A DNA stretch of 56,762 bases from Candidatus Methylomirabilales bacterium (GCA_041599135.1 JBFHXD010000002.1:1-56762), one strand, 5' to 3'; shown: positions 45,762 to 51,325, numbered from the stretch's first letter. Made by a program: numbers and translations. The notes: generated by a model not told the origin, from the letters alone.

Positions 45762-45800
45762 CAAAAAAAGAAGGGCTCCGTTCGTTTGACGGAGCCCTTC
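45762..45800 (-). terminator. Rho-independent terminator after the octaheme cytochrome gene
   Basis: Minus strand: GAAGGGCTCCGT-CAAACG-ACGGAGCCCTTC followed by TTTTTTTGT. ~30 nt downstream of the stop at 45832. Confidence 0.8.
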
Positions 45801-45831
45801 ATGGAGTAACAGAAACAAAATCCTGGGCTGG

Positions 45832-46953
45832 CTACTTACCGAGGGTGTGAATATTCTTGCTGTTCTCCAGCGCCCACTTCGTGTCCTGTGCGCCGTGACA
45901 GCGCAGGCAGGCGAAGTCCACGGTCAGTATCCCTGTGGCGAACTTGCCATCGGGGGTGAACATCTTATCTGCCGGATTTGTCGAAATCTTCACGATGTGG
46001 GATTTCACATCGCCGACATATTTCGAAAACTTTTCGGCACTCTTCCCGGCGGGGGGCATATGGCAGTCCATGCACGTGATGCCAGAGAGCTGCATTTTGC
46101 TGCCCTTGAACTCCTTGCCCTGCTTCGAATGGCAGGCCGTGCACTCTCTCCTGATGGAGACCTCCGCCCGCTTATGCGAGTCATGGCAGGTGACGCAGCC
46201 GATCTTGCCTGCATGCGGGCCGGCGAGATACTCGTTGTACTGCTCGTGGTGGCGGATGAACCCACCCTTGGCGGGAATCTTTTCTTTGGTCCCACGAATG
46301 TGACACTGACCGCAAAGGTCCGGGGAAGTGCTCCGCTTGATATTCTCCTTGCTCGGTGCCTCGGCGTGGGCCGCGCCCGGGCCATGGCACTCCTCGCACG
46401 TGATCCCGGGAAAGGCCCACGTGCCGACGATTCCCGGCAGCCCGTCTTGGTGCCCCTCTTTGCTGTACCCGCTGGTGTGGCACGCGCCGCAGTCGTAGGG
46501 CTTTTTCTCGCCTGCGTGGTAGTCCACCCAGCGGCCCGTGGCCAGGTTGTACTGGTTCTTTCCGGGTTGATCCTTATTGGGCCCGGTCTTGGTGATGATA
46601 TATCCCTGTGTGTCAACAAACCGCGCCTTCCAGTTGGCCCCACCGATCACATAGCTGATGTCGTCCCAGTCGTACCCCTCGGGCAGGGGGATTCCCCACG
46701 CCCGGGCCTCGGCGGCGGGGCGAAGTTTCTTGGGATGCCCAGAAGCTCGGTAGTCGTTGTACTTGTCGCTATGGCACTCGGCGCAGGCCTGGGGCCCTGC
46801 ATAGCCCTTTGCCTTGGCCTCGCGTGAAACTTTCTCCGAAGGAAGAAGCAGCGCCTTCTCGTTCGCCCATGTAAATCCAGCGACGAGCACAAAGACCAAG
46901 GACAAGACAGTAAGGGAGCAAACAATATAGGGACGCGCGATACGCCTACGCAT
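45832..46953 (-). CDS. Octaheme c-type cytochrome (secreted or anchored)
   Basis: N-terminal hydrophobic segment. Eight CxxCH motifs (CAECH, CGACH, CEECH, CGQCH, CVTCH, CTACH, CMDCH, CLRCH). 373 aa. Confidence 0.85.
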   Translation of the reverse strand: MRRRIARPYIVCSLTVLSLVFVLVAGFTWANEKALLLPSEKVSREAKAKGYAGPQACAECHSDKYNDYRASGHPKKLRPAAEARAWGIPLPEGYDWDDISYVIGGANWKARFVDTQGYIITKTGPNKDQPGKNQYNLATGRWVDYHAGEKKPYDCGACHTSGYSKEGHQDGLPGIVGTWAFPGITCEECHGPGAAHAEAPSKENIKRSTSPDLCGQCHIRGTKEKIPAKGGFIRHHEQYNEYLAGPHAGKIGCVTCHDSHKRAEVSIRRECTACHSKQGKEFKGSKMQLSGITCMDCHMPPAGKSAEKFSKYVGDVKSHIVKISTNPADKMFTPDGKFATGILTVDFACLRCHGAQDTKWALENSKNIHTLGK

Positions 46954-47057
46954 GGCGACTTCCTTCCGAAGGCTTCACAGTTTTTCGCAGGCCTTCCGAC
47001 ACGAATTCTACATCCTGAAGGGCCTCGCGCACGAATTAAGTCGCGGTCCAATTATAG

Positions 47058-48434
47058 TTAAAACTTCACGGTGATCCTGGCCTGGATGTTATCACTGGTC
47101 TGACGTTCCTCGGCACCGACCAACTTGTCGATCTCCTGCCGGTGCCGGTACCGGAGGTCGAAGACGGTGTTCTTGAAGATGCCCACCTTATACCGCATCT
47201 CGATGCTCCAGGCGTTGTTCGGATAGTCCGGCGAGATCAGATAGCCGGCCTCGGTCCAGTTGAACTGAAACCCGAGGCTCCCGGGCCCCACATTTTTGAG
47301 ATCGAGTCCCGCGACGACGGCGAACCGACCCGCCGACTCCGTGCTGTTTGAGACCTCCAGGACGTTTTCCTGAGGCGTCTGGGTCATCACGCCGAACTCC
47401 CCGAACGGGTGGAGGATGATGGGCTCCAGCCACGAGAGCGGGAAATCCGCCGCGCCTTTGAGCGTGAAGGCGACCATATTCTCCTTCTGCTCGCTGGCGA
47501 GGCCTGCGGGCCGGAGCGCTTGCGGGATGATCGTGACATCCGCCAAGAGCTGGGTGAAGGGCTTCGAGCGAGGCGCTTCCAGGGCCACATAATAGGTGAA
47601 GCGGGAAGCCCCCTCTTCATAGTCGACCGGTCCTCGAGCCCCAACGCCGTTGGTCGGACCGTCCTTGGGGTTTTCCTGGCCGATCAGATGGAGCGTGAAG
47701 GCAGAGGGCCTTCCGATGCTCACGTGGAAGCCGTCGGTCCAAGTGATGTCGAGGCCAGAGGAATCGTGACGGGAGAGGCTGTCCTCCACTACCGAATCCA
47801 CCTCGAACGCGGTTTGGAGCCTTCCGCCCTCGATCGTGAGGAGCTCGTGGGGCTTCAGCGTGAGGAACAGCTCATCGAAGGTCACATCGCCGGGTTCGAG
47901 GCCCCCGTCGAACTTGAACTGGAAATCAAAGTTCTCAATTTCAGTATTGATCCCGAGGGCTAACCGGGCGGTCAGACCGAGCCAGGGAAAGAAAGAGACC
48001 TCAGCCCCTCCGCGGAGCCGGGCCGCCGGGATGACCTTGACAAAGGCGTCGCCGTCTCGCTTCCCCGTTCTGTTGTAAGGTACCGCGGCCCTCAGGTCCC
48101 CGATGAAGGTCACATGCCGCGCCACCCACGACCGCTGCTTTTCCGCGCCGGCCGTCTCTGGCTCACGAGATGGCTCTGCGGGGGCGGAGGCGCTTTCCTG
48201 CTTGGAAGGTTGGTGTTGCTGAACGGTAGGGTCTTGTAGCTTCGCCACCGAATCCGCGCCAACCGCGCGTGTCGGTGTGAGGATCAGCATCGACAGAGCA
48301 AGCACCGCAATCAGTATCCTCTTCAGGGAAAAGAGGACATTCGGAGTTACCCCCGGTTTCGTGGACACACCCAGAGGATAGGGGGTTGATTCAAACGTTG
48401 CGGGACTGAGGGAGTTAGTCACTGGTGCAGCCAC
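47058..48434 (-). CDS. Outer-membrane beta-barrel (porin-like) protein
   Basis: Internal signal-like segment LKRILIAVLALSMLILTPTRAVGA. Long alternating amphipathic beta pattern. C-terminal ...IQARITVKF with terminal Phe. The true start is probably downstream of 48434. Confidence 0.6.
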   Translation of the reverse strand: MAAPVTNSLSPATFESTPYPLGVSTKPGVTPNVLFSLKRILIAVLALSMLILTPTRAVGADSVAKLQDPTVQQHQPSKQESASAPAEPSREPETAGAEKQRSWVARHVTFIGDLRAAVPYNRTGKRDGDAFVKVIPAARLRGGAEVSFFPWLGLTARLALGINTEIENFDFQFKFDGGLEPGDVTFDELFLTLKPHELLTIEGGRLQTAFEVDSVVEDSLSRHDSSGLDITWTDGFHVSIGRPSAFTLHLIGQENPKDGPTNGVGARGPVDYEEGASRFTYYVALEAPRSKPFTQLLADVTIIPQALRPAGLASEQKENMVAFTLKGAADFPLSWLEPIILHPFGEFGVMTQTPQENVLEVSNSTESAGRFAVVAGLDLKNVGPGSLGFQFNWTEAGYLISPDYPNNAWSIEMRYKVGIFKNTVFDLRYRHRQEIDKLVGAEERQTSDNIQARITVKF

Positions 48435-48650
48435 CTCCTTCTGGGTCTCTCCGGCCGGGTGCGCCAGGCAAAGTAGCCACTGCGACTCATGCGGAGCGCT
48501 TGACTAAGCCGGCCCACACGGATAAAGCGCCCTTGAGCATTGCGCCAGGGTTCAATCGGAGATCCGGACGCTTTCACAGGGGGTTGCGCCGGCAAAGACA
48601 AGAATGAAAGGCTCCGTCACTCTGCTGGAACGCTTACAGCAAACGAGGCT

Positions 48651-48755
48651 GCACAGGGCCGGATTTGACCCGGGAACCCTCTGGTCACACTCAACGTACG
48701 GAAGCAGATCGGCTGCAGGCCCGAGCTGGGCCTTTTGCTCGCCGCACGCGGGTCT
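48651..48755. repeat. Copy A of a ~105-bp direct repeat (thioredoxin-segment fragment, AGA at the position of the TGA)
   Basis: Hand alignment with 50604-50708 shows about 10 mismatches. Minus-frame peptide RPACGEQKAQLGPAADLLPYVECDQRVPGSNPALC versus (TGA)PACGEQKAQFGPAADLLPYVECDQRVPGSNPGLC. Confidence 0.85.
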
Positions 48756-48808
48756 CGGCGTGGTTCCGCAGACTACGGCGCCGATCTTACTGGCATGACG
48801 GATTCGCG

Positions 48809-50272
48809 CTACTTTTGTTCCCCGTAGCGCTGGCGGTAAAACTCCTGGATCTTCTGGAGTTGCTCCTTGCTCATCCCCTCTTTGAGCCATCGATGGCCCG
48901 GCTGGGAGAAGACGTGCTTGTCGAGGAGCTGCGTGGCAAGCGGCTCGCCCGCGACGTGCTTGACCTCTGGAATGAATTCGAGATAGAAGTTCTTCGCAAC
49001 ATCATACATGCCGTGCCACCAGGCATAATCAGGTCCTGACATGGACGCGCCGTGTCGCGCCCGGCGCCCCTCGTGGTGCCAGAGTTCCCAGTAGATCCAC
49101 TCCAGATGCTCGTCGAAGGGGGCCGGTGTCAGCTTCCCTGCCTTCTTGAGCTCTTGCATGATGGTAGTGGCCGGGCGGGCGAACTTGTCGTTGTACAGGA
49201 CCACCAGATCGTCGAACTGCCGGTAGAATCCGGTTACGAACGGCTCAGCATGACAGTTCCTGCACACGTTCACCATGCGGTCCCGTCGGTCTTTCCAGGT
49301 TAACACCTCTTTCACCCGCTTTCCGTCCACCCTGGCTCCGGGCTTGGGCAGGGGCTTGCCCTCCGGAATATCGGTCTTGGACAGATCGTCGAAGACCACC
49401 ATGTTCAGCTTGTTTGAAATCGGTGGCCTGAGCGTCCAGGAGATTCGCTCGCCCACATCGTGGGTCACTCCCTGATTTGGCGTGGCGCTCATATGGCACG
49501 TTGCGCACGTCGGGGCCGCCGTGTAGTCCACGCCTACGATCCAACTGGAGCGGTCAATGTTCAGCCGGTCCTTGAACGCTTGGTACAGGATGCCGTGCTT
49601 GGACTCCTGGTAGACTTCGATCTGCGGGTGATCCGGTCCCAGGTGGCACTTCCCACAGGCATCGGGCCGACGGGCCTGACCCACCGAGAAGGCATGCCGG
49701 GTGTGGCAGGCGCTACAGCTTCCCCGGCTGCCATCCGGGTTGATGCGGCCGATCCCTGTGTTGGGCCAGGTGGTTGGATCCAGCTTTCCCCCGGAGAGCA
49801 CGCGGATTTTCGATCCGTGGCACTGCATGCACCCCGTGGCGACGGCTGGCGGCCCCCCTACCACCTCACCCAGGAAGTTGTCAAGAGAGGCGAGAATTTG
49901 CCCCCCCTTCGCATGGTGGCTCCCTTTCTGCTCATCCACTTCTTTCTGGTGGCACTGGGCACAATCCTTCGGACTCACCAGGATAGCGATCGTCAGGTCA
50001 AAGTGTTCGAAAGCGTCCGGATCTCCCTTGGCGGCGCGATGGCAATCGTAGCAGTTGACTCCAACCTCTCCGTGACGCCCGATGCGCCACTCCTCTACCA
50101 GGGCCACGTTCTGCTCCCTATGGCAGGCGACGCAGGCGTCTCCCTCTTTCGCCCCCCAGCTTGTGCCCGGGTACTGCGCGTAGGCTCGTCCTTCCCACCA
50201 CCCCGGGGTCGCAAGTATGCCCAAGAGGAGAGTTGTCCCCATCGCCGTAACAGAAAGCCACCGGCTCATCAT
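48809..50272 (-). CDS. Hydroxylamine-oxidoreductase-like (HAO family) octaheme cytochrome c
   Basis: Signal peptide from MMSRWLSVTAMGTTLLLG, with AGGAGG RBS. Eight CxxCH motifs (CVACH, CYDCH, CAQCH, CMQCH, CSACH, CGKCH, CATCH, CRNCH). CGKCHLGPDHPQIEVYQESKHG block typical of the HAO family. Confidence 0.8.
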   Translation of the reverse strand: MMSRWLSVTAMGTTLLLGILATPGWWEGRAYAQYPGTSWGAKEGDACVACHREQNVALVEEWRIGRHGEVGVNCYDCHRAAKGDPDAFEHFDLTIAILVSPKDCAQCHQKEVDEQKGSHHAKGGQILASLDNFLGEVVGGPPAVATGCMQCHGSKIRVLSGGKLDPTTWPNTGIGRINPDGSRGSCSACHTRHAFSVGQARRPDACGKCHLGPDHPQIEVYQESKHGILYQAFKDRLNIDRSSWIVGVDYTAAPTCATCHMSATPNQGVTHDVGERISWTLRPPISNKLNMVVFDDLSKTDIPEGKPLPKPGARVDGKRVKEVLTWKDRRDRMVNVCRNCHAEPFVTGFYRQFDDLVVLYNDKFARPATTIMQELKKAGKLTPAPFDEHLEWIYWELWHHEGRRARHGASMSGPDYAWWHGMYDVAKNFYLEFIPEVKHVAGEPLATQLLDKHVFSQPGHRWLKEGMSKEQLQKIQEFYRQRYGEQK

Positions 50273-50314
50273 GTGTCTCCTCCTATTTGGATGGCGACTC
50301 ATATCGTTACAGAG

Positions 50315-50328
50315 TTTTTGCGCAAAAA
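50315..50328. promoter_or_regulatory. Perfect 14-bp palindrome upstream of the HAO-like gene
   Basis: TTTTTGCGCAAAAA, ~45 nt upstream of ATG 50272, inside an unusually AT-rich gap (50360-50494). Confidence 0.25.
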
Positions 50329-50494
50329 AACCTCTCGCGGCGTTCCGGACATCGTGCACTCACATACGTGTCATTATCTTGGCATCTATGTACTAGAGAA
50401 CCGGTCCCATGTCTATGACCAAAATCACAAAAAAATAAATTTTATGATAGGCCCCCGCAAGGGACGCCGAAATTCCGCGGGTCCTTCGAGAATA

Positions 50495-51325
50495 CTACTG
50501 TTGGAAGTCCGAGAGCTTGGCCAGCCGGTTAAACGAGAGGACGCCCTCGTAGCGCTTTCCCTTGATGAACCACGTGGGGTAGGCCTTGATCGCGAGTTGG
50601 TTGCACAGCCCCGGGTTTGACCCGGGAACCCTCTGGTCACACTCGACGTACGGAAGCAGATCAGCCGCAGGCCCGAACTGGGCCTTTTGCTCGCCACACG
50701 CGGGTCACCAGTATGCCCCGTACATCATGGCGCCGCTCTCGGCGAGGTGGCGAGCGAGCGCCTGCTGTGCGGCGGCGGTCTCCGGCGAGCTTGCCGCGAA
50801 GAAGCCGGCGCCGATGAGGACCGTCGCCACCGCGGTGATGGTTCCGAGGGTCACAACGCGGGACTTGCGCGCGGGGAACCGTCGGCCCGTCCCCCTTGGG
50901 CGGTACAGAAGGAGCACGCCAAACAGCGCGGCCGCGATCACCGCCGAAAGGATGCAATACCCGCAGATCGCGCGGATCTCAAACAGCTCGAGGTAGGTGA
51001 GATACGCCGAGAAGGAAACGCCTGCCACGGCGAGGAGAAAGGTGGAGAGCCATCGCCGCGCGTCTAGCCCGATGAGCGCGATCGCACCGATGGCTGCGTA
51101 CAGCCCGGCGCCCCACAGCGCCGTCGGCAAGCCAAAAAAGACGGCGTATCGGCTTGCCTGGACGATGTCACAGCCACTGCCGGCCGTGCAGAAGAGGGGG
51201 CTGTCACCGCCGAGCTTCGTCAATGCGAGATAGCCCGCGACGACGAATCCCGCGGCTGCAAGCCCGGCCACCGGCCAGTTGCGCCGTGGCGTCTCGAATT
51301 GTTTGTGTCGTGAGAATCGTGCCAT
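50495..51325 (-). CDS. VKOR (DsbB-analogue) fused to a thioredoxin-like domain, with in-frame TGA (50705-50707) at the first Cys of the CxxC motif; candidate selenoprotein
   Basis: VKOR motifs CTAGSGCDIVQAS and CGYC in a 4-5 TM core. Then ...LAESGAMMYGAYW-TGA-PACGEQKAQFGPAADLLPYVECDQRVPGSNPGLCNQLAIKAYPTWFIKGKRYEGV...*. This reproduces the YGAYWCPHC...YVEC...YPTW pattern of VKOR-Trx fusions. The 69 sense codons after the TGA contain no ATG, GTG or TTG. Confidence 0.65.
50604..50708. repeat. Copy B of the ~105-bp direct repeat (inside the functional thioredoxin domain, includes the TGA)
   Basis: See copy A. The two copies bracket the HAO-like gene and its AT-rich upstream region. Confidence 0.85.

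Follow-up and report, generated by a model that had tools for sequence, protein, structure and literature searches.

The stretch of DNA analyzed here, referred to as the window, comprises 56,762 nucleotides (nt; GCA_041599135.1 JBFHXD010000002.1:1-56762) of G000, a Methylomirabilales (NC10) metagenome-assembled genome of 2.69 Mb and 94% completeness, and the source names of the closest homologues likewise point to Methylomirabilales (NC10). Between positions 45832 and 50272 the minus strand carries three open reading frames (ORFs) in a row, which encode an octaheme cytochrome of the hydroxylamine oxidoreductase (HAO) family, a 458-amino-acid (aa) barrel protein and a second octaheme cytochrome, termed cyt2. 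An initial annotation had described these three genes and a terminator behind them, and had read the group as a trans-outer-membrane electron conduit in the style of MtrAB or the Geobacter porin-cytochrome (Pcc) clusters. The gene order and terminator are borne out by the ORFs, the CxxCH counts and a hairpin followed by seven T residues. The features of the locus are the following.

48809..50272, minus strand: HAO-family octaheme cytochrome, IhOCC-like and apparently of reductive type, with a Sec signal peptide (8 CxxCH, PF13447, profile match to IhOCC 4qo5)
48647..48754, minus strand: relic copy, 108 nt, of a thioredoxin-domain coding segment from the upstream VKOR-Trx gene (direct repeat of 92% identity, partner at 50599-50706)
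47058..48434, minus strand: 16-strand outer-membrane porin-like barrel of an unannotated family (AlphaFold2 and Foldseek; 458 aa, 0 CxxCH, ends in ...RITVKF)
45832..46953, minus strand: octaheme c-type cytochrome cyt2 of the OcwA/OmhA/MccA clade, with a Sec signal and no lipobox (373 aa, 8 CxxCH, profile match to OcwA 6i5b and Foldseek)
45770..45800, minus strand: intrinsic terminator closing the barrel-cyt2 unit (12-pair stem with 8 G-C pairs, then TTTTTTT)
45764..48325, minus strand: barrel-cyt2 cassette (DNA homology to L046/L070, the sole other lineage with the pair)

The HAO-like ORF is open over 48809-50359, its start most likely being the ATG at 50272, and the probable start of the barrel gene is a GTG at 48422, downstream of the ribosome-binding site AAGGAGG (alternative GTG at 48434). 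Packing of the genes is loose, with spacers of 374 nt between HAO and barrel and 104 nt between barrel and cyt2, and the terminator sits directly after cyt2, the last gene of the run. Neither the 108-nt repeat nor the cassette border stems from a chimeric assembly, as independent unitigs of three metagenome runs cover both junctions (48172-48448 and 48357-51224). The assembly graphs of two runs contain a small bubble at the cassette border (alternative letters at 48338 and 48355-48356), which suggests strain-level variation at the recombination joint.

Membership of the first protein in the HAO family follows from its eight CxxCH motifs and its homology to HAO, HDH and IhOCC structures, with PF13447 matching at E 7e-27. 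A single-sequence search of the PDB returns IhOCC (4qo5) at E 2e-47 and HAO, HOX and HDH at ~1e-17 to 1e-20, and a search with the family profile returns IhOCC at E 3e-65 and the oxidative HAO, HOX and HDH at ~1e-25. Inspection of these matches reveals that oxidative HAO, HOX and HDH align over the central heme block alone, and that IhOCC is the only solved relative whose C-terminal helices align with the window protein. IhOCC, from Ignicoccus hospitalis, is thus the best solved HAO-like relative; it too has eight CxxCH motifs and a residue other than Tyr at the cross-link position. It differs in that the domain matches cover only ~31-275 and 329-432 of the 490-position profile, and in that it is missing the motif GPDYxWWHG, which is known from sequence to be invariant across the window's HAO-like family. 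The reductive HAOs Kuenenia Kustc0458/HAOr and epsilon-Hao are grouped with IhOCC as known relatives of the window protein.

The initial annotation had singled out the SGPDYAWWHG region as the place where comparison with reference HAOs would separate oxidative from reductive enzymes. In the HAO of N. europaea (NeHAO), an oxidative enzyme with a P460 cofactor, Tyr467 cross-links to heme 4 of the neighboring subunit. Because direct alignment of the HAO-like C-terminus to NeHAO or KsHOX failed, whether with the whole protein, the family profile or the C-terminal 125 aa, the Tyr467 position was reached by a chained alignment with the Methylomirabilis-type HAO of locus L023 as the bridge. The NPGGWTY467TEGW segment of NeHAO pairs with NPD-YALWYGW of L023 in a low-scoring alignment (17 bits), and GPD-YAWWHGM of the window and QQD-VSWWWGQ of Kustc0458 fall in the same register as the L023 motif. 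By this 17-bit chain, the equivalent of Tyr467 in the window protein is a Trp, and the invariant Tyr of SGPDYAWWHG lies two residues before that position, opposite Trp465 of NeHAO. Kustc0458 and IhOCC have no heme-Tyr cross-link, and enzymes of that sort act reductively (PMC8042395, PMC9250108). Since the Tyr467 position holds a Trp and cross-link-free enzymes act reductively, the HAO-like protein appears to be without the cross-linking Tyr and of reductive type, an assignment that we make with moderate confidence given the chained alignment behind it. The enzyme would most likely reduce nitrite, hydroxylamine or nitric oxide.

Homologues of the HAO-like protein are numerous, are 60-90% identical to it, and occur across Methylomirabilota, Nitrospira and Proteobacteria (Alpha-, Beta- and Gammaproteobacteria). 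They adjoin NarGHJI or monoheme cytochromes or stand alone, and none of the homologue loci examined places a barrel next to the HAO-like gene. One homologue of 79% identity (L087, 9001-19387) is followed directly by a gene for a cytochrome c, by NarGHJI and by a NarK-like gene of the major facilitator superfamily (MFS), a context that fits a role for this homologue in nitrogen-oxide metabolism. For the HAO match of the relative G002 (L040 = G002:C33, 6750-8219), one in-frame TAA is reported, yet an intact 489-aa ORF is present; the TAA probably lies in an upstream extension of the alignment.

The two copies of the 108-nt repeat bracket the HAO gene, one within VKOR-Trx and the other in the HAO-barrel spacer, and the relatives L069 and L040 each contain a single copy of the segment. 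L069, from the same population as L070, has the order 8-CxxCH cytochrome gene, VKOR-Trx, a 2.8-kb stretch with a glycosyltransferase and other unrelated genes, and barrel, with no HAO. Read from the sequence, the repeat is best taken as the footprint of the recombination that brought HAO in, an event that would have duplicated 108 nt of the neighboring thioredoxin coding segment. Because the gene is bracketed by the repeat and absent from L069, the closest relative with barrel-cyt2, HAO is regarded as a later arrival, which agrees with an option that the initial annotation had raised. The three-gene synteny that a conserved module would have led one to expect was not found outside the window in the relatives examined.

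That the 458-aa protein is a beta-barrel, as had been proposed, is confirmed by structure prediction. The AlphaFold2 model, built on a 30-sequence alignment, has a mean predicted local distance difference test (pLDDT) score of 75, with 188 residues at or above 90, and DSSP assigns 16 strands to residues 104-453. A signal-peptide helix and a disordered linker ~50 residues long stand in front of the barrel. The top Foldseek matches are porins of 16-18 strands, namely OmpM1, PorB, OmpF, OccK, OprB and OprP, with E down to 2e-11 and TM-scores up to 0.71 (normalized to target). The protein combines the attributes of a classical 16-strand porin: a signal peptide, an even antiparallel barrel, a C-terminal aromatic residue (F or Y in all 30 aligned homologues) and a long loop between strands 5 and 6. 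The most conserved motif of the family, FE(L/V)DSVVxDSLSRHDSGGLD..WTDG, falls between these two strands, that is to say at the L3 position, and the window barrel keeps all invariant residues of the family. The L3 loop of classical porins folds into the lumen and sets selectivity; the L3 segment of the barrel model is of low confidence.

The likeness to OmpM1, PorB, OmpF and OprP therefore lies in the fold, the signal peptide, the C-terminal Phe and the conserved charged loop at the L3 position, in contrast to a similarity in sequence that is marginal. Neither Pfam nor NCBIfam gives a match above cut-off for the window barrel or any of the 30 aligned members. The sole NCBIfam match of the window barrel is the LbtU siderophore porin NF033652, which is limited to the C-terminal 75 residues and scores 16.5 bits where the cut-off is 90; weak matches among the 30 homologues are to LbtU in three and to the OprO/OprP family (Porin_O_P, E 0.0015) in six. 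The family is also small: when 1.84 billion cluster representatives (50% identity) were searched exhaustively with its profile, 249 hits emerged, nearly all of them 370-450 aa long. Cytochrome fusions and CxxCH motifs were sought in the long homologues and none was found, only charged low-complexity N-terminal extensions. In P0324, P0312, P0371, P0398, P0383 and P0308 these extensions are 100-200 aa long, rich in E, R and A and coiled-coil-like, and in some extended homologues the extension follows an apparent N-terminal transmembrane helix; such an architecture suggests that the porin is fused to a tether across the periplasm. The linker of the window barrel is shorter and rich in P, E, S and A.

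To place the barrel in its genomic context, ~38 loci from public assemblies, GTDB genomes and JGI metagenomes were surveyed. An MFS gene lies directly upstream of the barrel gene in 10 of these loci, on the same strand and within ~40 nt or overlapping, and the barrels so linked are 51-63% identical to the window barrel and mostly from Methylomirabilota. The MFS partner is of the Pfam MFS_3 efflux type, with weak NCBIfam similarity that includes bacillibactin and staphylopine exporters. LbtU offers a parallel, as it pairs with the MFS proteins LbtB/LbtC. Because the family normally stands directly behind an MFS efflux-type transporter, the arrangement suggests a two-membrane route for a small molecule, possibly a metallophore. 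Small EB_dh-domain proteins precede the barrel in two loci, the gammaproteobacterial loci have variable neighbors, and a multiheme cytochrome adjoins the barrel only in the window and in L046/L070, two contigs of one population whose barrels are 85-91% identical to that of the window. The tie between barrel and cytochromes that had been supposed from the window thus gives way to a porin family whose recurrent neighbor is an MFS transporter.

The cyt2-linked barrels group as a tip clade (support 100/99) in a maximum-likelihood tree. Their sister, L006, has no partner, and all of these fall inside a larger clade (98/99) that is otherwise MFS-linked. A barrel gene is present in 3 of 61 related genomes, and a search of G000 for an orthologue of the MFS partner returned none. 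In the congener G005, a 3' barrel fragment lies on a contig separate from the intact cyt2; only the 3' 195 codons of the gene are left (L009 = G005:C140, 45-632), with unrelated sequence in place of the 5' part, a sign that the gene has decayed or been rearranged.

The third protein, cyt2, has more than 2500 homologues in Methylomirabilota, Rokubacteria, Nitrospirota, Thermodesulfobacteriota, Chloroflexi and the Firmicute Calderihabitans, and because they span Chloroflexi and Calderihabitans, the family is not tied to an outer membrane. Its family profile matches OcwA of Thermincola potens (6I5B) at E 9e-24 (87 bits), OmhA (6QVM) at 1.5e-13 and MccA (4RKM) at 2.5e-8 in the PDB, and reaches MtrA (6R2Q chain A) with 32 bits only; TIGR03508, the MtrA/DmsE family, scores 32.7 bits on cyt2 against a cut-off of 192. 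An AlphaFold2 model of moderate confidence (pLDDT 69.5) retrieves OcwA (E 2e-10) and MccA (5e-9) with Foldseek. By homology of both sequence and fold, cyt2 belongs with OcwA, OmhA and MccA, the enzyme-type "clade 3" of the NrfA/HAO superfamily (PMC9250108), and at 43 aa per heme it is a globular, enzyme-type octaheme. These best matches are larger, with 9 or 11 hemes in more than 500 aa, whereas cyt2 has 373 aa for its 8 hemes. Cyt2 is also without the CX15CH motif of MccA, and it is predicted to be periplasmic in a diderm rather than associated with a surface layer or cell wall. An invariant pair, H235-H236, lies in the HHxQY motif common to cyt2 and OcwA (HHEQY in cyt2) and aligns to SHHLQY of OcwA in a domain of only 7 bits. 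As the histidine pair of OcwA lies distal to a five-coordinate heme (PMC9250108), the HHEQY motif suggests a catalytic role.

Inspection of the cyt2 loci reveals several settings. In L047, cyt2 stands directly after a five-gene molybdoenzyme operon orthologous to that of the window, where cyt2 precedes the operon; in G012 and G018 it lies beside other molybdoenzymes, and at other loci it is alone or next to other cytochromes. In the same locus L047 (5471-9317), an iron-dependent repressor/FeoA gene and FeoB come after cyt2. EB_dh (DOMON-like heme-binding) proteins adjoin cyt2 in L043 (4499-6355) and L097 (2456-3856), and adjoin barrel homologues in L003 (9121-9995) and L054; the Feo and EB_dh neighbors are a possible hint at iron or oxyanion chemistry. 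Both the HAO-like protein and cyt2 read as Sec-type proteins with no lipobox after the signal.

How the three genes came together was addressed by comparison with relatives at the DNA level. By blastn, the barrel-cyt2 unit of the window is 87% identical to L046 and L070 over 45764-48325, a span that takes in the terminator and stops just beyond it. The match of the cassette to L046, L070 and L038 ends at 45764, and G005 shares only the segment with cyt2 and the terminator (45764-46968). The position of the start codon in homologues of the barrel is a CTG in the window and coincides with the cassette border at 48325. A new GTG start at 48422 or 48434 extends the N-region of the signal peptide by ~33-37 residues, and the window barrel apparently uses the GTG at 48422, which lies behind the strong AAGGAGG and accounts for ~33 of them. 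Over 45832-48320, comparison with L046 gives a synonymous divergence (dS) of 0.27 for the barrel and 0.56 for the adjacent cyt2, a two-fold difference within the cassette that could stem from internal recombination or codon-usage effects.

The cassette lies within a respiratory island that runs, in the window, from Rieske/cyt b through c-type cytochromes, a NapC-like octaheme, the 8-CxxCH cytochrome (a 584-aa ORF) and VKOR-Trx to the slot that holds the three genes, followed by a periplasmic molybdoenzyme operon. The contents of the corresponding slot in relatives are the following.

G004: VKOR, MtrA, MtrB, iron-sulfur (FeS) protein, molybdoenzyme
G002: VKOR, HAO, MtrA, MtrB
G008: MtrB, then a molybdoenzyme operon of the window type (93% identical)
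G012: HAO, histidine kinase, sigma-54 regulator, cyt2, FeS protein, molybdoenzyme; no barrel
L046/L070: barrel, cyt2, response regulator, MtrA, MtrB

The MtrB homologues of congeners match PF11854 (MtrB/PioB) with E 1e-94 to 1e-123 and have a decaheme MtrA as their partner. PF11854 is found in 8 of 21 relatives, and a search of the whole 94%-complete G000 returned no homologue. Pairs of MtrA and MtrB_PioB lie in L040 (8646-11901), L098 (G004:C3, 10221-13461), L100 (G008:C40, 8882-10555) and L046 (4487-7231). Because the MtrAB pairs of congeners stand directly downstream of the cluster of NapC-like octaheme, 8-CxxCH cytochrome and VKOR(-HAO), an Mtr-type conduit is the normal companion of the NC10 respiratory island. 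In this respect the intuition of the initial annotation about location was good, as the slot is where the porin-cytochrome conduit of the genus lives. In G020 the MtrA-MtrB pair adjoins the Rieske/cyt b genes, and in G002 the IhOCC-type HAO gene is immediately upstream of MtrA. The idea that barrel-cyt2 is a simple replacement of MtrAB is weakened by L046/L070, where both coexist in tandem.

Could the three genes themselves encode such a conduit, with cyt2, the HAO-like protein or both inserted in the barrel as a miniature analogue of MtrAB or Pcc? The likeness to MtrAB, MtoAB and PioAB is that a multiheme cytochrome gene lies beside an outer-membrane barrel gene in the same slot as the MtrAB of congeners; multiheme cytochrome genes in fact flank the barrel gene, and the run ends in a terminator. 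OcwA and OmhA, the nearest solved relatives of cyt2, are moreover cell-surface terminal reductases of Gram-positive metal reducers. MtrB, however, is a 26-strand barrel in the solved structure 6R2Q (Shewanella MtrCAB), of 650-800 aa in its family, in contrast to a window barrel that is not PF11854 and has 458 aa and 16 strands, far below this number, along with the conserved L3-type loop. Cyt2 is a globular, enzyme-type octaheme with 87 bits to OcwA against 32 bits to MtrA, rather than a decaheme of the MtrA/DmsE kind, the gene order is reversed in the window, and the adjacency of barrel and cytochrome is not conserved across lineages.

The Pcc systems provide a closer comparison in size. Their porins are smaller than MtrB, with 18-22 predicted strands against 28 predicted trans-membrane motifs for MtrB (Shi 2014; PMC4245776), are always paired and co-evolving with a periplasmic multiheme cytochrome, and are accompanied by an outer-membrane lipoprotein cytochrome in most, though not all, clusters (PMC4245776). 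The window resembles Geobacter OmbB-OmaB-OmcB in having a porin-like protein of ~400-450 aa beside an eight-heme periplasmic cytochrome. It differs in that 16 strands fall below the Pcc range, in that the usual partner of the barrel family is an MFS transporter, and in that a lipoprotein cytochrome is absent; because neither cytochrome has a lipobox, there is no partner at the outer face. Barrel and cytochrome show neither co-occurrence nor co-evolution, no member of the barrel family has a CxxCH motif or a cytochrome fusion, and the adjacency of HAO to the barrel is unique to G000 and a product of rearrangement. A porin family unrelated to cytochromes and a lack of three-gene synteny elsewhere are, moreover, the two outcomes that the initial annotation had itself named as refuting its reading. 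We accordingly depart from the initial annotation on this point and hold a conduit through the barrel, with or without the HAO-like protein, to be very improbable.

A second alternative keeps the barrel and cyt2 together in function, as a substrate porin and a periplasmic reductase. Here the porin would admit a soluble extracellular electron acceptor. This could be a metal complex, for example chelated Fe(III), or an oxyanion of the type of sulfite, thiosulfate, arsenate or selenate; cyt2, maybe through a five-coordinate catalytic heme, and/or the Tat-exported (twin-arginine) molybdoenzyme would reduce the acceptor in the periplasm, and the unit would partly substitute for MtrAB. Several observations favor such a functional link and weigh against a mosaic of separate units. 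The 104-nt spacing of the pair and its terminator are the same in two different flanking contexts, that of the window and that of L046/L069/L070, and both genes are under purifying selection (dN/dS of 0.31 for barrel and 0.13 for cyt2). The pair occupies exactly the slot of MtrAB in G002, G004 and G008, immediately upstream of the molybdoenzyme operon, and G000 is without both MtrB/PioB and the MFS partner of the barrel. The invariant HHxQY of cyt2 aligns weakly to the OcwA His pair distal to a five-coordinate heme (PMC9250108), relatives of both barrel and cyt2 lie near EB_dh or molybdoenzyme genes and iron-uptake genes, and six of the 30 barrel homologues weakly match the OprO/OprP anion-porin family. 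Taken as a whole, the conserved cassette, the purifying selection, the MtrAB slot and the missing MtrB/PioB and MFS make a functional porin-cytochrome link possible.

Set against this, cyt2 occurs without the barrel in G012, G005 and thousands of genomes, and the barrel occurs without cyt2 in nearly all of its loci. In L046/L070 the pair coexists with MtrAB, so no replacement took place there, the alignment of the HH pair scores 7 bits only, and the sequence does not allow a substrate to be named. The proposal of a substrate porin in the initial annotation stays viable. We treat the porin-plus-reductase unit, the admission of a soluble acceptor and the periplasmic reduction that would partly stand in for MtrAB as the main rival of the mosaic reading given below, tentative and, on present evidence, rather unlikely. 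The stronger form of the proposal, in which barrel and cyt2 would be a new two-gene respiratory unit that the Methylomirabilales lineage recruited into the MtrAB slot to stand in for a lost MtrAB, strikes us as doubtful.

The identities and folds of the genes, their distribution and the borders of the cassette are direct results of the comparisons above. As to their meaning, we consider it reasonably likely that the locus consists of three separately inherited units placed side by side by recombination, rather than one machine or a new conduit. We lean to a similar degree toward the composition of this mosaic as a reductive IhOCC-type enzyme, a solute porin without its former MFS partner and a cytochrome of the OcwA/MccA clade. 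According to this mosaic reading, the HAO-like gene would encode a soluble octaheme enzyme, presumably periplasmic and with no heme-Tyr cross-link. The 458-aa protein, with its conserved acidic L3-type loop, would act as a 16-strand diffusion porin for the passage of a small hydrophilic solute across the outer membrane, its MFS partner having been lost in the window lineage. Barrel and cyt2 probably make up a two-gene transcription unit that stops at the terminator; RNA-seq runs with the locus were sought, and only DNA metagenomes turned up. Cyt2 would probably serve as a periplasmic reductase or as an electron carrier for periplasmic redox enzymes such as the downstream molybdoenzyme. No electron wiring would run through the barrel.

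The locus does not represent a new kind of system, and its families, while uncharacterized, fall within known fold classes. Its broader message is one of caution, in that a barrel gene beside a cytochrome gene is not automatically an extracellular electron conduit; strand number, gene context across the whole family and the fold class of the cytochrome are what separate real Mtr/Pcc modules from look-alikes. Three leads emerge for the biology of these organisms. One is the porin family of the barrel, both rare (~250 representatives at 50% identity) and unannotated, in which an efflux-type MFS transporter is the usual partner. Another is the large and conserved IhOCC-like family of Methylomirabilota, Nitrospira and Proteobacteria, marked by GPDYxWWHG and a candidate for nitrite or hydroxylamine reduction. 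The last is the NC10 island itself, a recombination hot spot at which close relatives exchange MtrAB, an IhOCC-type enzyme, an OcwA-like cytochrome and operons for molybdoenzymes.

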